In this document: positions 22,190-31,506 of the stretch, one piece after another
Numbering within the stretch: the first letter of the stretch is position 1
Layout: each line of letters begins with the position of its first letter
Origin: Escherichia coli
GTDB taxonomy: Bacteria > Pseudomonadota > Gammaproteobacteria > Enterobacterales > Enterobacteriaceae
Length of the DNA stretch: 64,000 nucleotides
Strand: one strand, 5' to 3'
Assembly (NCBI RefSeq): GCF_011045215.1
Contig: NZ_CP049201.1
Made by a program: the position numbers and the translations under genes
Notes under the pieces: model-generated
The model's database searches: none
Seen by the model: only the letters and a program-made list of their open reading frames with translations
What the model was told of the DNA's origin: nothing

Positions 22190-25514
<3,325 letters not shown>

Positions 25515-25728: not shown

Positions 25729-26043
25729 ATGTCAGCGATACAGGGGATTGAAGGGGTTATCAGCCAGTTACAGGCTACGGCGATGAGTGCGCGTGCGCAG
25801 GAATCACTGCCGCAACCGACCATTAGTTTTGCCGGGCAGCTGCACGCCGCGCTCGATCGCATTAGTGATACACAAACAGCTGCCCGCACGCAGGCAGAAA
25901 AATTCACTCTCGGTGAACCCGGCGTGGCGTTAAACGATGTGATGACCGATATGCAAAAAGCCTCAGTTTCTATGCAAATGGGGATTCAGGTGCGTAATAA
26001 GCTGGTGGCGGCGTATCAGGAAGTGATGAGCATGCAGGTGTAG
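25729..26043 (+). CDS. fliE: Flagellar hook-basal body protein FliE
   Basis: Start at ATG 25729 ([10 protein letters not shown]), 104 aa; divergent from fliF. Confidence 0.93.
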
Positions 26044-26376
26044 GTTTTGTAACCTGTTGGTAATTACTTCCAATCTCACCGCTTGGGGCATGGATGGGGC
26101 AAACTCACTCAATTTCTGGTTTAAAATGGATACCTGATCCTGAACGTTTTCTGCCATCCACGATCCGTAAACGCGATAACATGTTTTGTCTTCGCTTTGC
26201 TCATAGGAAGAGTGAACTCTTTTGTTAGCCTGGGGTTCCTTCTGATCATTATTGTTCCTGCCTTTATCTCTTGCCACGCCAGAGCCCCCTGGATACACAT
26301 ACACCAGGATGAAAACGGTGAGTTGTGTTCAAACTGTAGTACAATTCTCTCCAGTATGAACAGGAAAGAATATGCT

Positions 26377-26709
26377 ATGAACCCTTATATTTATCTTGGT
26401 GGCGCAATACTTGCAGAGGTCATTGGTACAACCTTAATGAAGTTTTCAGAGGGGTTTACACGGTTATGGCCCTCTGTTGGCACAATTATTTGCTATTGTG
26501 CATCATTTTGGTTATTAGCTCAGACACTGGCTTATATACCTACAGGGATTGCTTATGCTATCTGGTCAGGAGTCGGTATCGTTCTGATTAGTTTGCTTTC
26601 CTGGGGATTTTTTGGCCAACGACTGGACCTGCCAGCCATCATAGGCATGATGTTGATTTGTGCCGGTGTGTTAGTCATTAACTTGTTGTCACGAAGCGCA
26701 CCGCATTAA
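26377..26709 (+). CDS. emrE: Small multidrug resistance (SMR) efflux protein EmrE
   Basis: 110 aa (MNPYIYLGGAILAEVIGTTLMKFSEGF...), conserved Glu14 context; AGGAAAG RBS; upstream part of ORF-track entry not coding. Confidence 0.9.
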   Translation: MNPYIYLGGAILAEVIGTTLMKFSEGFTRLWPSVGTIICYCASFWLLAQTLAYIPTGIAYAIWSGVGIVLISLLSWGFFGQRLDLPAIIGMMLICAGVLVINLLSRSAPH

Positions 26710-26877
26710 AAAATAATCATCCTTGAGATAACAGGAATCTGATTTGTGCATATTATGGCTAATGTTCGGGGCAACTTTATAATTATGATTGCATTTGCGC
26801 GATCATTGCGCCTTTATGCATAATGAGATCAATGCACATCAAATAAAATAACGATAGGTCACAACAAAGAGGTTTTT

Positions 26878-27429
26878 ATGAAAAAACTTATCGTTTCAAG
26901 TGTATTGGCATTCATAACATTTTCTGCGCAGGCCGCAGCATTTCAGGTCACTAGTAATGAAATAAAAACAGGAGAGCAACTTACAACGTCTCATGTATTT
27001 TCTGGATTTGGGTGTGAGGGGGGTAATACATCGCCCTCATTAACCTGGTCTGGTGCTCCAGAAGGCACCAAAAGCTTTGCCGTAACTGTGTATGATCCAG
27101 ATGCGCCTACAGGCAGCGGATGGTGGCACTGGACTGTTGCTAATATTCCAGCAACGGTAACATATTTGCCCGCTGATGCAGGAAGACGTGATGGTACAAA
27201 ACTTCCGACTGGTGCTGTCCAAGGCCGAAATGATTTTGGCTATGCGGGATTTGGTGGAGCATGTCCTCCCAAAGGAGATAAACCCCATCATTACCAGTTT
27301 AAAATATGGGCTCTAAAAACTGATAAGATTCCTGTGGATTCTAATTCCAGCGGAGCGTTAGTTGGTTATATGCTTAATGCCAATAAAATTGCAACCGCTG
27401 AGATAATACCCGTTTATGAGGTAAAGTAG
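26878..27429 (+). CDS. Periplasmic PEBP/YbhB-YbcL family protein (YbcL-like)
   Basis: 183 aa with signal peptide; PEBP-like motifs (DPDAP, HYQF); in K-12 the homolog sits in DLP12 next to emrE. Confidence 0.8.
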   Translation: MKKLIVSSVLAFITFSAQAAAFQVTSNEIKTGEQLTTSHVFSGFGCEGGNTSPSLTWSGAPEGTKSFAVTVYDPDAPTGSGWWHWTVANIPATVTYLPADAGRRDGTKLPTGAVQGRNDFGYAGFGGACPPKGDKPHHYQFKIWALKTDKIPVDSNSSGALVGYMLNANKIATAEIIPVYEVK

Positions 27430-27438
27430 GATAAGAGT

Positions 27439-28236
27439 ATGCTGGCAAAAGATAGGACTAACCTAAAGATTGAAGAAATACGGATGCATAAACATCATGA
27501 GATTCACAGGGTTAAGCCTCTTATGCCAGCTTTATGTCGTATCCGTCAGGGAAAAAAAGTTATCAATTGGGAGACGCATAGTCTAACTGTTGATAATAAT
27601 CAGATAATATTATTTCCCTGTGGATATGAATTTTATATTGCGAATTACCCAGAAGCAGGTCTTTATCTTGCAGAAATGCTTTATTATCCCATTGATCTAA
27701 TTGAAAAGTTCCAAAATCTTTATGCGATAACCGATCAAATTCGTAACACGACAGGTTTCTGCTTACCTCAGAATCCCGAGTTAATATATTGTTGGGAGCA
27801 ACTAAAAACATCTATTTCCCGAGGCTTCTCAACGCAAATTCAGGAACACTTAGCAATGGGCGTTCTACTTTCATTAGGAGCACATCATGTTAATTGTTTA
27901 CTTTTATCAGATAGTAAACAATCATTAACAAGTCGTTGTTATAACCTAATGCTATCCGAACCTGGAACAAAATGGACAGCAAACAAGGTAGCGAGATATC
28001 TCTACATTTCTGTTTCCACATTGCATCGCCGTCTGGCAAGCGAGGGAGTAAGTTTTCAAAGTATATTGGACGACGTGAGGTTAAATAATGCGTTGTCTGC
28101 TATACAAACGACAGTAAAACCCATCAGCGAGATTGCCAGGGAAAATGGTTACAAGTGTCCTTCTCGTTTTACTGAAAGGTTCCATAATCGTTTTAAGATA
28201 ACACCAAGAGAGCTAAGAAAAGCGTCCAGAGAGTAA
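27439..28236 (+). CDS. AraC-family transcriptional regulator (YbcM-like)
   Basis: C-terminal AraC-type HTH; true start may be internal ATG at 27484. Confidence 0.78.
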
Positions 28237-29363
28237 AAGTATTTTATGAAGGAGCAACAGCATCGATTTTTATTTTGGAAAATAAATACGGCATACTCAA
28301 CCTATTGGAGCCTGAACAATCCGGTGACTTCTGCGCTAATCGGGGACGTTTATAAGCACATATAATTGATACTATCTTCCTCCATCACAATTTCAGAAAT
28401 GCACGTGTGATTTTTTTGCATCCGGCGTTTGGACTATGTGGAGTTCAAGAGTGGGAAAGTTACAAGAGGTTGAGGGGATAATTAAAGGGATGCTTATGAC
28501 ATTAGATATCCGGATAGGTACGGATATCGTTGTTATTAAATCTAGTTTATACGTTAAGATGCAGCTACAGCAGAAATTGCCACTGTTAATTTTTTCATCG
28601 TGAGCCCTTTTATTTTAACTATTATTTAAAAATGATGTCACTGCACTACAAATATTCATCCAATCAATGAGATTATTTCAAGATGTAAGTTTTAGTTTCT
28701 CATTTAAATTGTGAAGTAGATCCCTATCTTTATCTGAACTGTTTCTATTGCACACAATGCATGACTATTTTGTGAACGAATATAAATTTGGTAGTTAAAT
28801 TATATTAAAGGTTGTTATTTATGATTGACTCATGATTTATTTATTTAATTTAAATAGCCTAGAAATAACCATGGAAATTATTTGCATGATGTTTGTTTAG
28901 ATTTATTAATGTAATTGAGGTGGTTTTATTTAATACGCAATATAGCGCCGCTTGATATTAGTTCTATTTTTTTTGCGTAAGATAGATGAGACAAACTGAG
29001 ACGCATAATGGTTTGCAAGGCTCTAATACTTTGATGTTGAGGATGTGATGGGGCATGTACGGGGCATAGTACAATGATGTCCATGCTGGTGTAGATAATC
29101 TCCAGGCTTATCCGGTGCGCCGTAAAACCCCGTCCTTCAGGGCAGGGATATAAGGCGCGGTTTTCCACCTAACCAGGTGTTTGCTGTTGTTCAATGTATT
29201 GGCGCACCTCCGCAGCTACTGGCAAAATAGCCAGCACTCCACAAAACGCCTTTGTAGTAATACCTGACTGCAATATCTGGTCGATCTCGTCGCAGTAACC
29301 TACCCGATACGCCTTTGAGGCTGTTTACCAGACTGGATATCGCCAGTTTGGGAGGATAGTTAA

Positions 29364-29579
29364 TTAACAAACGTGATCTGGTTCGCCATCCATTTCAACC
29401 AGTTCAGCTTCAAAATCAGCACATACCTTTGAAAAGTAAGTGCGTAGTTTTTCTGTCGCGTCATGGTCAAAAATCTGGCGTCGGTATCTGGTGACAAAGA
29501 CCAGGTGAACATGCATCAGGAAAACACAATGCCTTCCACGCCGGATATCGGTTTCTTTTTTCACAGACCAAAGTATCAT
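29364..29579 (-). pseudogene. tnpA: IS200/IS605 Y1 transposase TnpA fragment (3'-truncated just before the HuH motif)
   Basis: 71 aa: ...HVHLVFVTRYRRQ... ends ...GEPDHVC-stop where HuH (HVHLL) is expected; full TnpA is ~140-150 aa. Confidence 0.65.
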
Positions 29580-29586
29580 TTGGCCT

Positions 29587-30795
29587 GTGAAACGACTACA
29601 GGCATTTAAATTCCAGTTAAGACCCGGTGGTCAACAGGAGCGTGAAATGAGGCGCTTCGCAGGCGCATGTCGTTTCGTTTTCAATCGTGCTCTGGCACGT
29701 CAGAATGAGAATCATGAGGCCGGTAATAAATACATCCCTTACGGGAAAATGGCTTCCTGGCTGGTTGAGTGGAAAAATGCCACTGAAACGCAATGGCTTA
29801 AAGATGCCCCGTCACAGCCATTGCAACAGTCACTGAAAGACCTTGAGCGGGCTTACAAAAACTTCTTCCGGAAGCGGGCTGCTTTTCCCCGATTCAAAAA
29901 GCGGGGACAGAATGATGCATTCCGCTACCCGCAGGGCGTTAAGCTCGATCAGGAAAACAGTCGTATTTTTCTGCCGAAACTTGGCTGGATGCGCTACCGG
30001 AATAGCCGTCAGGTCACGGGTGTTGTGAAAAATGTCACTGTCAGCCAGTCCTGCGGTAAGTGGTACATCAGTATTCAGACTGAAAATGAAGTATCAACTC
30101 CGGTTCACCCTTCAGCATTAATGGTCGGACTGGATGCTGGCGTGGCTAAACTCGCCACGCTGTCAGATGGCACAGTCTTTGGGCCTGTAAACAGTTTTCA
30201 GAAAAACCAGAAGACGCTGGCGAGACTTCAGCGACAGTTAAGCCGCAAGGTCAAATTCAGCAACAACTGGCAGAAGCAGAAACGCAAAATACAGCGACTG
30301 CATTCCTGTATCGCAAATATCCGCAGGGACTACCTTCACAAAGTCACAACGACCGTCAGCAAAAACCACGCAATGATAGTCATTGAGGATTTGAAGGTCA
30401 GCAACATGTCAAAGTCAGCAGCGGGTACGGTCAGCCAGCCGGGGCGCAATGTCCGGGCAAAATCAGGTTTAAACCGTTCGATACTGGATCAGAGCTGGTA
30501 TGAAATGCGCCGCCAGCTTGAGTACAAGCAGCTCTGGCGTGGCGGTCAGGTGCTTGCTGTTCCGCCAGCGTACACAAGCCAGCGTTGCGCGTGCTGTGGT
30601 CATACAGCGAAAGAAAATCGCCTGTCACAAAGTAAATTCAGATGCCAGGCATGTGGATATACAGCGAACGCTGATGTAAATGGCGCTCGTAACATTTTAG
30701 CGGCGGGGCACGCCGTTCTTGCCTGTGGAGAGATGGTGCAGTCAGGCCGCCCGTTGAAGCAGGAACCCACCGAAATGATTCAGGCGACAGCCTGA
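29587..30795 (+). CDS. tnpB: TnpB (OrfB_IS605; RuvC-like RNA-guided endonuclease family)
   Basis: 402 aa; RuvC-I GLDAGV, Ruv[10 protein letters not shown], Zn-ribbon CxxC...CxxC (QRCACCGH...RCQACGY), Ruv[14 protein letters not shown]. Confidence 0.9.
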
Positions 30796-30846
30796 ACGTA
30801 GCAGGGATCCTCGTCCTTCAGAGCGTGGAGGATGTCAACAAACAGG

Positions 30847-31506
30847 TTAAATTAACTCCGCGCCCTGGTTTTTGACATTACCTACCGCGCGCGATACCGG
30901 GTGCCAGGTGAACTGGTTTGCTGGCACACATCCACTGGTAGCAATTTCTGAGGCTTCTTTACCGCCAACCTCTTGCCGCATCCATTCCCGTGCAGCTTCT
31001 GGCGACAGAACCAGCGGGCGGCGGTCATGAATATCTACCAGACCTTGATCTGCCGCCGCAGTGACGATCAAAAATCCTTCGGCTTCGTCACCACGCTCAA
31101 ATGGTGTGCTTCCTATCGCGGCCATAAAAACAGGTTTTCCGTCAGTACGATAGATAAAATAAGGCTGCTTTTTGTCGCCTTCTTTTTTCCACTCAAACCA
31201 GCCATCGGCAAAACAGATTGCCCGACCGTGTTGCCAGAGCGGTTTAAACATGCGACTGGTTGCGGCAGTTTCTACGCGGGCGTTAATCAGCGGCGGTTTA
31301 TCCCACCATCCGGGAGCATATCCCCAGAAAACCGGATCCAGATGAAGGTGTTCATCACGTTCACTGAGCAGAAGAACTTTGGTTCCCGGCGCGACGTTGT
31401 ATCTGCCAATGGGTTCGGGATCGTAGGGAATATCGCGTTCAATATCTTCCGCGAGAAGCGCAAGGTAATCTTCACGCGTTTGGGATTGGGCAAAGCGTCC
31501 ACACAT
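30847..31506 (-). CDS. yedK: SOS-response-associated peptidase (SRAP) YedK, abasic-site processing protein
   Basis: 219 aa starting MCGRFAQ (catalytic Cys2). Confidence 0.9.
   Translation of the reverse strand: MCGRFAQSQTREDYLALLAEDIERDIPYDPEPIGRYNVAPGTKVLLLSERDEHLHLDPVFWGYAPGWWDKPPLINARVETAATSRMFKPLWQHGRAICFADGWFEWKKEGDKKQPYFIYRTDGKPVFMAAIGSTPFERGDEAEGFLIVTAAADQGLVDIHDRRPLVLSPEAAREWMRQEVGGKEASEIATSGCVPANQFTWHPVSRAVGNVKNQGAELI

Follow-up and report, generated by a model that had tools for sequence, protein, structure and literature searches.

The emrE, ybcL and ybcM genes beside fliE in Escherichia coli are very probably surviving cargo of a decayed DLP12-like prophage

In the window, a 64,000-nucleotide stretch of Escherichia coli contig NZ_CP049201.1, we found a relic of 3.05 kb between the genes fliE and yedK, with an insertion sequence on its yedK side (Table 1). 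The initial annotation had reported emrE, ybcL and ybcM, of moderately low G+C, downstream of fliE together with an IS remnant, and all of this holds: the three genes are intact, their G+C content is 40.4%, and the IS is an IS609-like element. The G+C content of the interval 26044-29094 as a whole is 38.9%, against 53.9% in fliF-fliE and 53.2% in yedK-yedE. A scan of the island for promoters and terminators returned sites no more numerous than in shuffled sequence. SMR transporters are proteins of about 110 residues with four transmembrane helices and an essential Glu14; judged by its sequence, EmrE would be one of them, since the predicted protein starts MNPYIYLGGAILAEV and has Glu at position 14. 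YbcL has a PEBP domain and a hydrophobic N-terminus (MKKLIVSSVLAFITFSAQAAA), in keeping with the N-terminal signal peptide of PEBP/RKIP-like proteins, and YbcM is a putative AraC-family regulator, whose PF12833 domain, at residues 185-261, corresponds to the C-terminal double helix-turn-helix of that family. In K-12, ybcLM forms an autoregulated operon of its own and YbcM binds upstream of it, the DNA binding having been shown for the K-12 protein only (PMC8464067).

Table 1. Features of the fliE-yedK interval and its borders, in window coordinates.
Feature	Position	Strand	Details
fliE	25729-26043	+	left chromosomal neighbour of the relic
attL core	26023-26043	+	last 21 bases of fliE including stop codon (GTGATGAGCATGCAGGTGTAG)
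Tyrosine integrase remnant, C-terminal piece	26062-26196	-	residues 387-431 of a 434-aa integrase; stop codon lost
Tyrosine integrase remnant, middle piece	26175-26285	-	about residues 239-277
Last ~9 bases of ren and ren-emrE intergenic region	26301-26376	+	blastn against DLP12
emrE	26377-26709	+	110 aa, intact; Pfam PF00893 Multi_Drug_Res, E 2e-35
ybcL upstream region	26723-26877	+	in blastn block with DLP12
ybcL	26878-27429	+	183 aa, periplasmic PEBP/RKIP-like, intact; Pfam PF01161 PBP/PEBP, E 1e-41
ybcM	27439-28236	+	265 aa, putative AraC-family regulator, intact; Pfam PF12833 HTH_18/AraC, E 1e-16
ybcM downstream region and ylcH stub	28237-28443	+	within the 89.3% DLP12 blastn block
Late antiterminator Q (quuD-like), 3' fragment	28453-28551	+	last 30 codons; blastn and tblastn
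Phage porin (nmpC/lc-like), 5' fragment	28557-28936	-	first 14 codons and upstream region; remaining porin deleted
P-arm (phage-side) DNA adjoining attR	28937-29073	.	conserved with porin-bearing form
attR core	29074-29094	+	second copy of the fliE 3' end (ATGATGTCCATGCTGGTGTAG)
IS609-like (IS200/IS605 family) element	29113-30838	+	boundaries by comparison with IS-free locus L002
tnpA of IS609-like element	29191-29579	-	frameshifted; Pfam Y1_Tnp in two halves
tnpB of IS609-like element	29587-30795	+	402 aa, intact; OrfB_IS605 and Cas12f1-like_TNB
yedK (SRAP)	30847-31506	-	right boundary gene; Pfam PF02586, E 3e-52

As the initial annotation stated, K-12 carries the three genes in the prophage DLP12, and its fliE-yedK interval holds yedL, yedN and intG instead. 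Compared with the K-12 proteins, EmrE differs at 2 of 110 residues (98% identical) and is identical to the copy of E. coli 536, YbcL differs at 9 of 183 (95%) and YbcM at 23 of 265 (91%). The codon differences from the DLP12 copies are mostly synonymous, with 22 synonymous and 2 non-synonymous in emrE, 26 and 9 in ybcL, and 43 and 23 in ybcM. Nucleotide divergence from DLP12 amounts to 6-9% within the three genes and to 7.5-10.7% in the blastn blocks; the divergence within the genes indicates that the fliE copy is old and did not jump recently from that locus.

The homology to DLP12 (L005 in our comparison) also covers DNA on both sides of the cargo. By blastn, window 26301-26711 aligned with L005:5240-5650 at 92.5% and 26723-28443 with L005:7739-9459 at 89.3%, and on the K-12 map of DLP12 the last base of renD is L005:5248 and the first of emrE is 5316. 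The ylcJ-ybcK segment of DLP12 is missing between emrE and ybcL of the relic, in which no protein match to Ren, YbcK or YbcN was found. Positions 28352-28411 match YlcH residues 1-20, and beyond this stub the relic has lost the nin region (ybcN-ninE-ybcO-rusA-ylcG) and the greater part of Q. What is left of Q is 82% identical to L005:11242-11342, the end of quuD (blastn), with residues 98-127 placed at 28457-28546 (tblastn, E 1e-8). Next to it, porin residues 1-14 are encoded at 28598-28557 with 100% identity, window 28558-28936 is 81% identical to the nmpC 5' end and its upstream region (blastn), and the junction of the porin deletion lies at 28557/28558. The full porin is kept in E. coli GN02350 and 536, and window 28558-29112 aligned with the porin-bearing locus L002:7092-7647 at 97.8% (blastn); positions 28937-29073 had no match in DLP12.

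Taken in order, the relic thus consists of two int pieces, the emrE upstream region with the ren/emrE junction, emrE, ybcL, ybcM, the ylcH stub, the end of Q and the start of the Q-adjacent porin, which is the order of DLP12 and of viable lambdoid phages. DLP12, at the argU locus of K-12, shows the same order and orientation (int on the minus strand, emrE, ybcL, ybcM, ylcH, Q, porin on the minus strand) at 81-92% nucleotide identity, and both prophages are defective. DLP12, however, is about 21 kb long, has ylcJ and ybcK, and uses argU with intD, whereas the relic has no lysis, nin or tail genes and lies at the fliE 3' end with an integrase that looks unrelated. The absence of lysis and structural genes is what is expected after deletion. 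Moreover, PhiR34_1, PhiR68_2 and PhiR70_1, which are complete inducible phages with the DLP12-type allele including ybcK, have emrE, ybcL and ybcM between ren and the nin region and a porin after Q, and their module is ~91% identical to that of the window.

The initial annotation had suggested that the spacer 26044-26376 may keep an integrase or att remnant, and it contains the two integrase pieces, starting 19 bp after fliE, while fliE itself ends in attL. The C-terminal piece is 78% identical (tblastn, E 4e-18) to the integrases of phage IdasGreatGrand and E. coli UTAK-1, and 75% to a 431-aa integrase of Citrobacter amalonaticus that itself lies 27 bp after fliE. The middle piece is 59% identical to the same C. 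amalonaticus protein (tblastn, E 1.5e-9), its residues LAWQEIKAGTIMIRRNPRLTKEFTLP aligning to LAWEDIDLKAGTMIIRRNHTLTKEFTLP. An internal deletion of ~109 codons joins the two pieces, whose frames differ, and together with a 5' truncation it destroyed the gene. The integrase remnant stands at one end of the relic and reads on the minus strand toward the attachment site, as is usual for an int gene adjoining attL in lambdoid prophages. Because int is destroyed, and with xis absent, the relic is predicted to be immobile, and its emrE copy would be chromosomally fixed. A DLP12-type integrase was rejected as the source of the remnant: DLP12 IntD showed no significant similarity to the fliE-emrE spacer, and the tblastn search against phages matched a different integrase family.

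A 21-bp direct repeat bounds the relic, with the last bases of fliE as attL and a second copy as attR, and these were the sole two matches in 16 kb at up to 4 mismatches on both strands. The query of this search was the common fliE allele, since the window's own fliE end departs from it, with AGC in place of TCC; the attR core agrees with the common allele at 19 of 21 bases and has 4 mismatches to the window's own fliE end, and an earlier scan for attR with that end, allowing up to 2 mismatches per 16-mer, found no match. A gap of 18 bp separates the attR core from the yedK stop codon, and the core occupies the same place in the compared loci L001, L002 and L089; the same repeat search found it missing from K-12, E2348/69 and an IS-deleted form of the locus (L003). 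The core at both ends is therefore that of the target sequence. Furthermore, the attP of IdasGreatGrand, directly after its int, reads ATGATGTCCATGCAGGTGTAG and then GTTTTGTAACCTGTTG, that is, the fliE end followed by the phage arm of the window's attL. In Citrobacter and Enterobacter, the fliE end is GGTTTAG at occupied sites versus GGTGTAG in 9 of the 10 empty sites listed.

We therefore consider it very probable that emrE, ybcL and ybcM at fliE are the surviving cargo inside a decayed DLP12-like lambdoid prophage that integrated at the fliE 3' end. The initial annotation placed the module here "instead of in a lambdoid prophage", which does not hold, as the genes still lie within an att-flanked relic colinear with DLP12. 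In the history that we propose, the final 21 bases of fliE would have served as the attB with which the tyrosine integrase of a lambdoid phage recombined attP, so that the fliE 3' end was restored at attL and a second copy remained at attR. The accessory ("moron") genes of the prophage, emrE and, separately, the ybcL-ybcM operon, would have been located between ren and the nin region, and a porin gene would have lain downstream of Q. Deletions may then have removed most of int, the whole stretch between and including xis and ren, the nin region along with the bulk of Q, and all lysis and structural genes, with the porin additionally lost in the lineage of the window. The intact cargo genes would now be ordinary chromosomal genes, passed on by vertical inheritance or homologous recombination, and the IS609-like element would be a later arrival that hit the yedK stop codon, beyond the limits of the relic. 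The order of the deletions and a single ancient integration are what we infer from the remains, and the cargo genes are presumably expressed and useful.

Of the 5426 complete E. coli genomes, 2619 (48%) have the fliE-emrE junction, and the fliE-type copy is the commonest form, with 2630 E. coli genomes against 1065 that have a phage-type copy only. A relic found in about half of the complete genomes is real but ordinary. The initial annotation had weighed its reading against a conserved arrangement with no sign of mobility; the locus is indeed widespread, but its scars of mobility are clear. In 454 E. coli genomes the porin is kept and the IS is absent, a less decayed form of the relic, and 766 have a minimal form in which only an integrase remnant separates fliE from yedK. 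A synthetic empty site (fliE end, 18 bp and yedK) had no one-piece match in the 5426 E. coli genomes, so the pre-integration state is a reconstruction. Full-length integrases were found in eight E. coli genomes. In E. coli UTAK-1, a lambdoid prophage that appears to be complete begins 17 bp downstream of fliE and comprises int, xis, N, repressor, replication genes, nin region, rusA, Q, lysis genes and terminase, the sequence covered ending in the terminase gene and the far end with attR lying beyond it.

Outside E. coli, 17 of 80 species representatives of the enterobacteria have an integrase homologue at a distance of 30-51 bp from the end of fliE; they come from Citrobacter, Enterobacter, Kosakonia, Leclercia, Buttiauxella, Pseudenterobacter and Escherichia clades. 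Full-length integrase genes follow fliE in C. amalonaticus and others, and in 16 of the 80 fliE directly abuts yedF, an unoccupied site. The fliE-proximal hotspot proposed from the window is thus borne out as a recurrent insertion site, the attB of a tyrosine-integrase family in several enterobacterial genera. IdasGreatGrand and the UTAK-1 prophage share the integrase family and an att core that is the same as the fliE 3' end; the parts of them examined had no emrE, ybcL or ybcM, and IdasGreatGrand is outside the 12 phage records that hold module genes. No intact prophage at fliE with the fliE-type emrE-ybcL-ybcM was found among the genomes examined, and the link between integrase and cargo is therefore drawn from the relic itself. 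Our literature search found no description of this locus, of fliE as attB, or of emrE, ybcL and ybcM in this context. We tentatively propose, with rather less than even confidence, that the fliE 3' end is an undescribed attB of one lambdoid tyrosine-integrase family across several genera and that the E. coli relic is a domesticated cargo island whose genes selection has kept intact in roughly half of the species. What the locus offers is a phage attachment site defined to the base, overlapping the end of a flagellar gene and in use today in E. coli and related genera, although nothing here should surprise a specialist on E. coli prophages.

The alternative that survives best concerns the number of integrations, and holds that related phages integrated at one attB independently, two or more times, to give the islands with the module and the K-12-type islands with yedL, yedN and intG, instead of one ancestral prophage decaying in different ways. 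In K-12 the "cryptic prophage PR-G" occupies the same position with the same integrase C-terminal fragment, intG, and is 99% identical at the nucleotide level through fliE to 26180, beyond which the K-12 locus has yedL and a yedN pseudogene, not emrE-ybcL-ybcM. K-12-type loci have the integrase C-terminal piece in common with the window, as well as the 18-bp flank on the yedK side, and keep a longer integrase stretch than the window, yet they have no attR core, which is not simply explained by a single integration. Recurrent arrival would also agree with the present-day use of the site and with the differences among B2 strains, 536 having the module and E2348/69 having yedL. Against it, a fliE-proximal integrase segment of 137 bp is common to all E. 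coli forms at 92-99% identity, with one breakpoint at 26179/26180, and we regard independent integrations as somewhat improbable, though a serious contender. Whether there was one integration or several is a sub-question that leaves the main explanation unaffected.

The direction of transfer could also be reversed, with emrE-ybcL-ybcM ancestral at fliE and captured from there by lambdoid phages such as DLP12 through recombination or imprecise excision, and the fliE copy is indeed the more compact one, without ylcJ and ybcK, and the commonest in E. coli. This is very unlikely: the genes are enclosed in an att-bounded segment and hold a central place in the phage map, with ren on one side and nin on the other and no att site beside them, whereas imprecise excision would take DNA adjacent to att; the outgroup loci do not have the genes, many of them with fliE abutting yedF; and the G+C content is low.

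Still less credible, to the point of being exceedingly unlikely, is an autonomous three-gene cassette that moved from a DLP12-type prophage to the fliE hotspot independently of a phage, close to the initial annotation's view of a drug-efflux module that travels as a unit. It is true that emrE, ybcL and ybcM form an uninterrupted run here and are neighbours in DLP12 and the three PhiR phages, and that the locus varies across strains, but the supposed cassette has no ends of its own: phage homology continues upstream of emrE and, on the other side, into the remnants of ylcH, Q and porin, and the island ends at the phage att repeats. The divergence from DLP12 given above argues against it as well, and so does the composition of the phages, since 9 of the 12 phage records have emrE without ybcL-ybcM, as does Lambda_4C10, with ybcLM being a separate operon. 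Plasmids account for just 1 of the 4861 places where the module occurs, every module context seen is lambdoid, and a single IS outside the island does not make a composite transposon or mobile resistance cassette. The module arrived as phage cargo, and where strains differ in the position of emrE, ybcL and ybcM, the difference goes back to two distinct decayed prophages rather than to a resistance cassette on the move.

Delivery of the module by the IS609-like element, or by IS-mediated recombination, is scarcely credible at all: an IS200/IS605 element with an intact tnpB does lie 877 bp from ybcM and recurs at many other chromosomal sites, but it is a single copy, hence without composite structure, elements of this family move as single-strand circles that contain nothing but the element, and its position outside attR and absence from the porin-bearing form of the island indicate that it did not bring the module. 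The IS200/IS605 family is recognized by a Y1 transposase (TnpA) with TnpB, by subterminal hairpins and by the lack of terminal inverted repeats. The element agrees with this in its Y1_Tnp domain, split over two ORFs by a frameshift, its TnpB and its subterminal repeats at 29128-29148 and 30809-30829, and it is annotated as IS609 family in other genomes; it is probably unable to move by itself. The insertion splits the yedK stop codon and is later than the relic, and yedK is 3 codons short from a CAA>TAA change, as seen when its C-terminus is compared with K-12 and GN02350.

A practical consequence of the prophage origin is that comparing K-12 with clinical strains for "the" ybcL or emrE may pit paralogous copies against each other. 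The ybcL of uropathogenic strain 536 sits in the fliE relic and that of K-12 in DLP12, and position 99 of the YbcL precursor is Thr in 536 versus Val in K-12, with Ala in the window. A functional difference in YbcL between UPEC and K-12 has reportedly been described; if position 99 is the residue reported to decide it, that difference would lie between two paralogous prophage loci and not between alleles of one gene.

The emrE-ybcL-ybcM module beside fliE is cargo surviving from a decayed lambdoid prophage, which is an ordinary explanation for its position. Every gene assignment from fliF to yedE had a strong Pfam score (see table), and the G+C content of 26044-29094 was 38.9%, compared with 53.9% in fliF-fliE and 53.2% in yedK-yedE, so that the initial annotation was right to see three low-G+C genes here. 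It was also right that in K-12 all three lie in the cryptic lambdoid prophage DLP12, where the K-12 annotation puts ylcJ and ybcK after emrE and before ybcL, and that the K-12 fliE-yedK interval differs, holding yedL, a yedN pseudogene and an intG pseudogene labelled 'cryptic prophage PR-G'. Its view that the module sits here instead of in a lambdoid prophage did not hold, since phage homology runs on both sides of the module and the whole interval is colinear with DLP12: blastn gave four blocks in the same order and orientation. Protein searches located fragments of YlcH, the antiterminator Q and the porin, and returned zero matches in the relic for Ren, YbcK and YbcN. The full porin gene is kept in the same island of E. 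coli GN02350 and 536, and in comparison with these 1.2 kb is deleted from the window at 28557/28558.

Features of the fliF-yedE interval, with blocks of DLP12 homology (blastn identity) and protein fragments
Feature	Coordinates	Strand	Remarks
fliF	23856-25514	-	Pfam-confirmed
fliE	25729-26043	+	Pfam-confirmed
attL core	26023-26043	+	last 21 bases of fliE (GTGATGAGCATGCAGGTGTAG)
Integrase C-terminal piece	26196-26062	-	residues 387-431
Integrase middle piece	26285-26175	-	about residues 239-277
DLP12 block	26301-26711		last bases of ren, intergenic region, emrE; 92.5%
emrE	26377-26709	+	Pfam-confirmed
DLP12 block	26723-28443		ybcL upstream region, ybcL, ybcM, ylcH start; 89.3%
ybcL	26878-27429	+	Pfam-confirmed
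ybcM	27439-28236	+	Pfam-confirmed
YlcH fragment	28352-28411		residues 1-20
DLP12 block	28453-28551		3' end of antiterminator quuD; 82%
Q fragment	28457-28546		residues 98-127
DLP12 block	28558-28936		5' end of porin nmpC and upstream region; 81%
Porin fragment	28598-28557	-	residues 1-14
attR core	29074-29094	+	ATGATGTCCATGCTGGTGTAG; direct repeat of fliE end, 18 bp from yedK stop codon
IS609-like element	29113-30838		subterminal repeats at both ends; bounds from IS-free loci
IS200/IS605 tnpA	29191-29579	-	frameshifted; Pfam-confirmed
tnpB	29587-30795	+	intact; Pfam-confirmed
yedK, yedF, yedE	after tnpB	-	Pfam-confirmed

Within 16 kb, on either strand, the attachment core had only two matches at four or fewer mismatches. 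The attR core differs from the common fliE allele at 2 of its 21 bases; we estimate the probability of a 19/21 match arising by chance in both strands of about 6 kb to be of the order of 1e-6. The core is found at the corresponding position in MB06233, GN02350 and 536. Directly after int, Escherichia phage IdasGreatGrand carries ATGATGTCCATGCAGGTGTAG and then GTTTTGTAACCTGTTG, which match the fliE end and the window sequence just beyond it, decisive support for these att sites. In Citrobacter and Enterobacter genomes with an integrase after fliE, the gene ends in GGTTTAG; of 10 unoccupied sites displayed, 9 have GGTGTAG, as should be the case if the last bases of fliE come from the phage. The repeat, the phage core and this switch together bound the relic at 26023 and 29094, leaving yedK outside.

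An integrase remnant, guessed by the initial annotation to lie in the fliE-emrE spacer, was found there by comparing the minus-strand translation with phage genomes. The best match was the IdasGreatGrand integrase (78% identity, E 9e-16), and Citrobacter amalonaticus has a full-length homologue of 431 aa located 27 bp after fliE. Given the residues present, the remnant is in two pieces, between which about 109 codons have been deleted; the N-terminal half is missing. By direct comparison, DLP12's own integrase is unrelated to it. Lambdoid phages are typically mosaic in this way, with different integration modules attached to early and late regions that resemble each other.

The suggestion of a fliE-proximal hotspot holds in one specific respect, that the site is a conserved attB: the fliE end is a genuine phage attachment site that is still used. 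FliE was used to retrieve 80 species representatives, of which 17 carry an integrase homologue that lies 30-51 bp beyond fliE (in genera including Citrobacter, Enterobacter, Kosakonia, Leclercia, Pseudenterobacter and Buttiauxella, and in Escherichia clades), and 16 have yedF within 150 bp of fliE with nothing between; emrE, ybcL and ybcM were absent within 10 kb of these fliE loci. Eight complete E. coli genomes carry a full-length integrase beside fliE. In one of these, UTAK-1 (L093:20038-41342), an apparently complete lambdoid prophage starts 17 bp after fliE, with int, xis, N, repressor, cro/cII-like, replication, nin-region, rusA, Q, tRNA, holin, lysozyme and terminase genes; it was read to a point inside the terminase gene, the attR side lying beyond the sequence retrieved. 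Two tRNA genes follow Q in this prophage. The whole fliE-yedF interval, yedK included, varies between species. In E. whittamii (L011:12261-12665) and Escherichia sp. E1V33 (L012:14124-14528) a 134-aa ORF adjoins yedF, together with other unrelated ORFs, and yedK was not detected between fliE and yedF; in E. cloacae DSM 26481 (L056) yedK lies 3.9 kb after an integrase stub. The module genes are routinely annotated and the K-12 integrase stub already bears a cryptic-prophage label; among the papers searched, none described this relic or fliE as attB.

Across 5426 complete E. coli genomes, the fliE-integrase-remnant-emrE junction occurs in 2619 (48%), nearly the same count as the contiguous module of the 95-100% identity class (2630 genomes); 1065 have only a DLP12/phage-type copy (90-95%) and 1699 have none. 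The window's own arrangement, the full IS609-bearing form, was found in 1072 genomes, a porin-bearing form in 454, yedL in 1287 and a minimal locus (fliE, integrase remnant, yedK) in 766, while an unoccupied fliE-yedK junction was found in none of the 5426. Plasmids account for just 1 of the 4861 module places. The two haplotypes do not simply follow phylogroups, since B2 strains are split between 536, with the module, and E2348/69, with yedL. Separate integrations of the yedL/yedN and module contents are favoured by the lack of the attR core in K-12-type loci and by the current use of the site; descent of both from one ancestral prophage is favoured by the integrase stub common to all forms, whose fliE-proximal 137 bp every E. 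coli locus form shares and whose break point against module-type sequence is always 26179/26180. K-12-type and minimal loci (L004:4490-4549, L090:1980-2036) share with the window an 18-bp yedK-side flank (ATAATCTCCAGGCTTATC-like), beside which they lack the attR core; yedL and yedN lie between this flank and the integrase stub.

Nucleotide divergence from DLP12 is 7.5% for emrE, 6.3% for ybcL and 9.0% for ybcM, with synonymous to non-synonymous codon differences of 22:2, 26:9 and 43:23. The divergence is far above the normal within-species level and mostly silent, and the two sets of copies are phage alleles that separated long ago and have been subject to purifying selection. In the window none of the three genes is disrupted; in MB06233, the nearest genome (99.3% identical), emrE is annotated as frameshifted (L001:3678-4027). 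Movement of the three genes as a unit, as initially proposed, is not borne out: three genomes of the phage collection have emrE-ylcJ-ybcK-ybcL-ybcM, nine have emrE without ybcL-ybcM, and Lambda_4C10 has emrE-ybcK followed by an alpha/beta hydrolase in place of ybcL-ybcM. In K-12, moreover, ybcLM is a separate operon, which YbcM autoregulates by binding to its upstream region (PMC8464067). Hence emrE and ybcLM are distinct accessory insertions that lie side by side in the ren-nin region of lambdoid phages. With int in pieces and xis missing, the relic is predicted to be unable to excise. A simple promoter scan of it was not informative; since the phage DNA upstream of emrE is still there, and so is the region before ybcLM to which YbcM binds in K-12, emrE and ybcLM are most likely now chromosomal units that are expressed independently of each other. 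The first would provide EmrE as a proton-coupled small multidrug exporter and the second, by analogy with K-12, a periplasmic PEBP protein autoregulated by YbcM. At YbcL precursor residue 99 (27172-27174) the window has Ala, the K-12 DLP12 copy Val and the fliE-relic copy of UPEC 536 Thr; with a signal peptide of 21 residues, this would be mature residue 78, which is reported to determine whether the protein suppresses neutrophil migration.

The IS609-like element lies outside attR and splits the original yedK stop codon, and is a later and unrelated event. As it sits exactly in that stop, YedK would end in ...PVC were it not for a CAA>TAA change three codons earlier (30839-30849), by which the last residues QPV are lost. 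Being common to 1072 genomes, the insertion seems to be a fixed copy, non-autonomous but with tnpB still open (402 aa; an RNA-guided nuclease family). Other junction-bearing genomes, such as strain EC22, show IS-associated truncations. In 2017.06.04CC (L007:3791-5578), what is left of the IS609 tnpA adjoins an ISKpn26-like element of the IS5 family; on that side neither the fli genes nor any of the relic survives, and dsrB/yodD is joined to yedK, so here the locus has undergone an IS-associated deletion or rearrangement.
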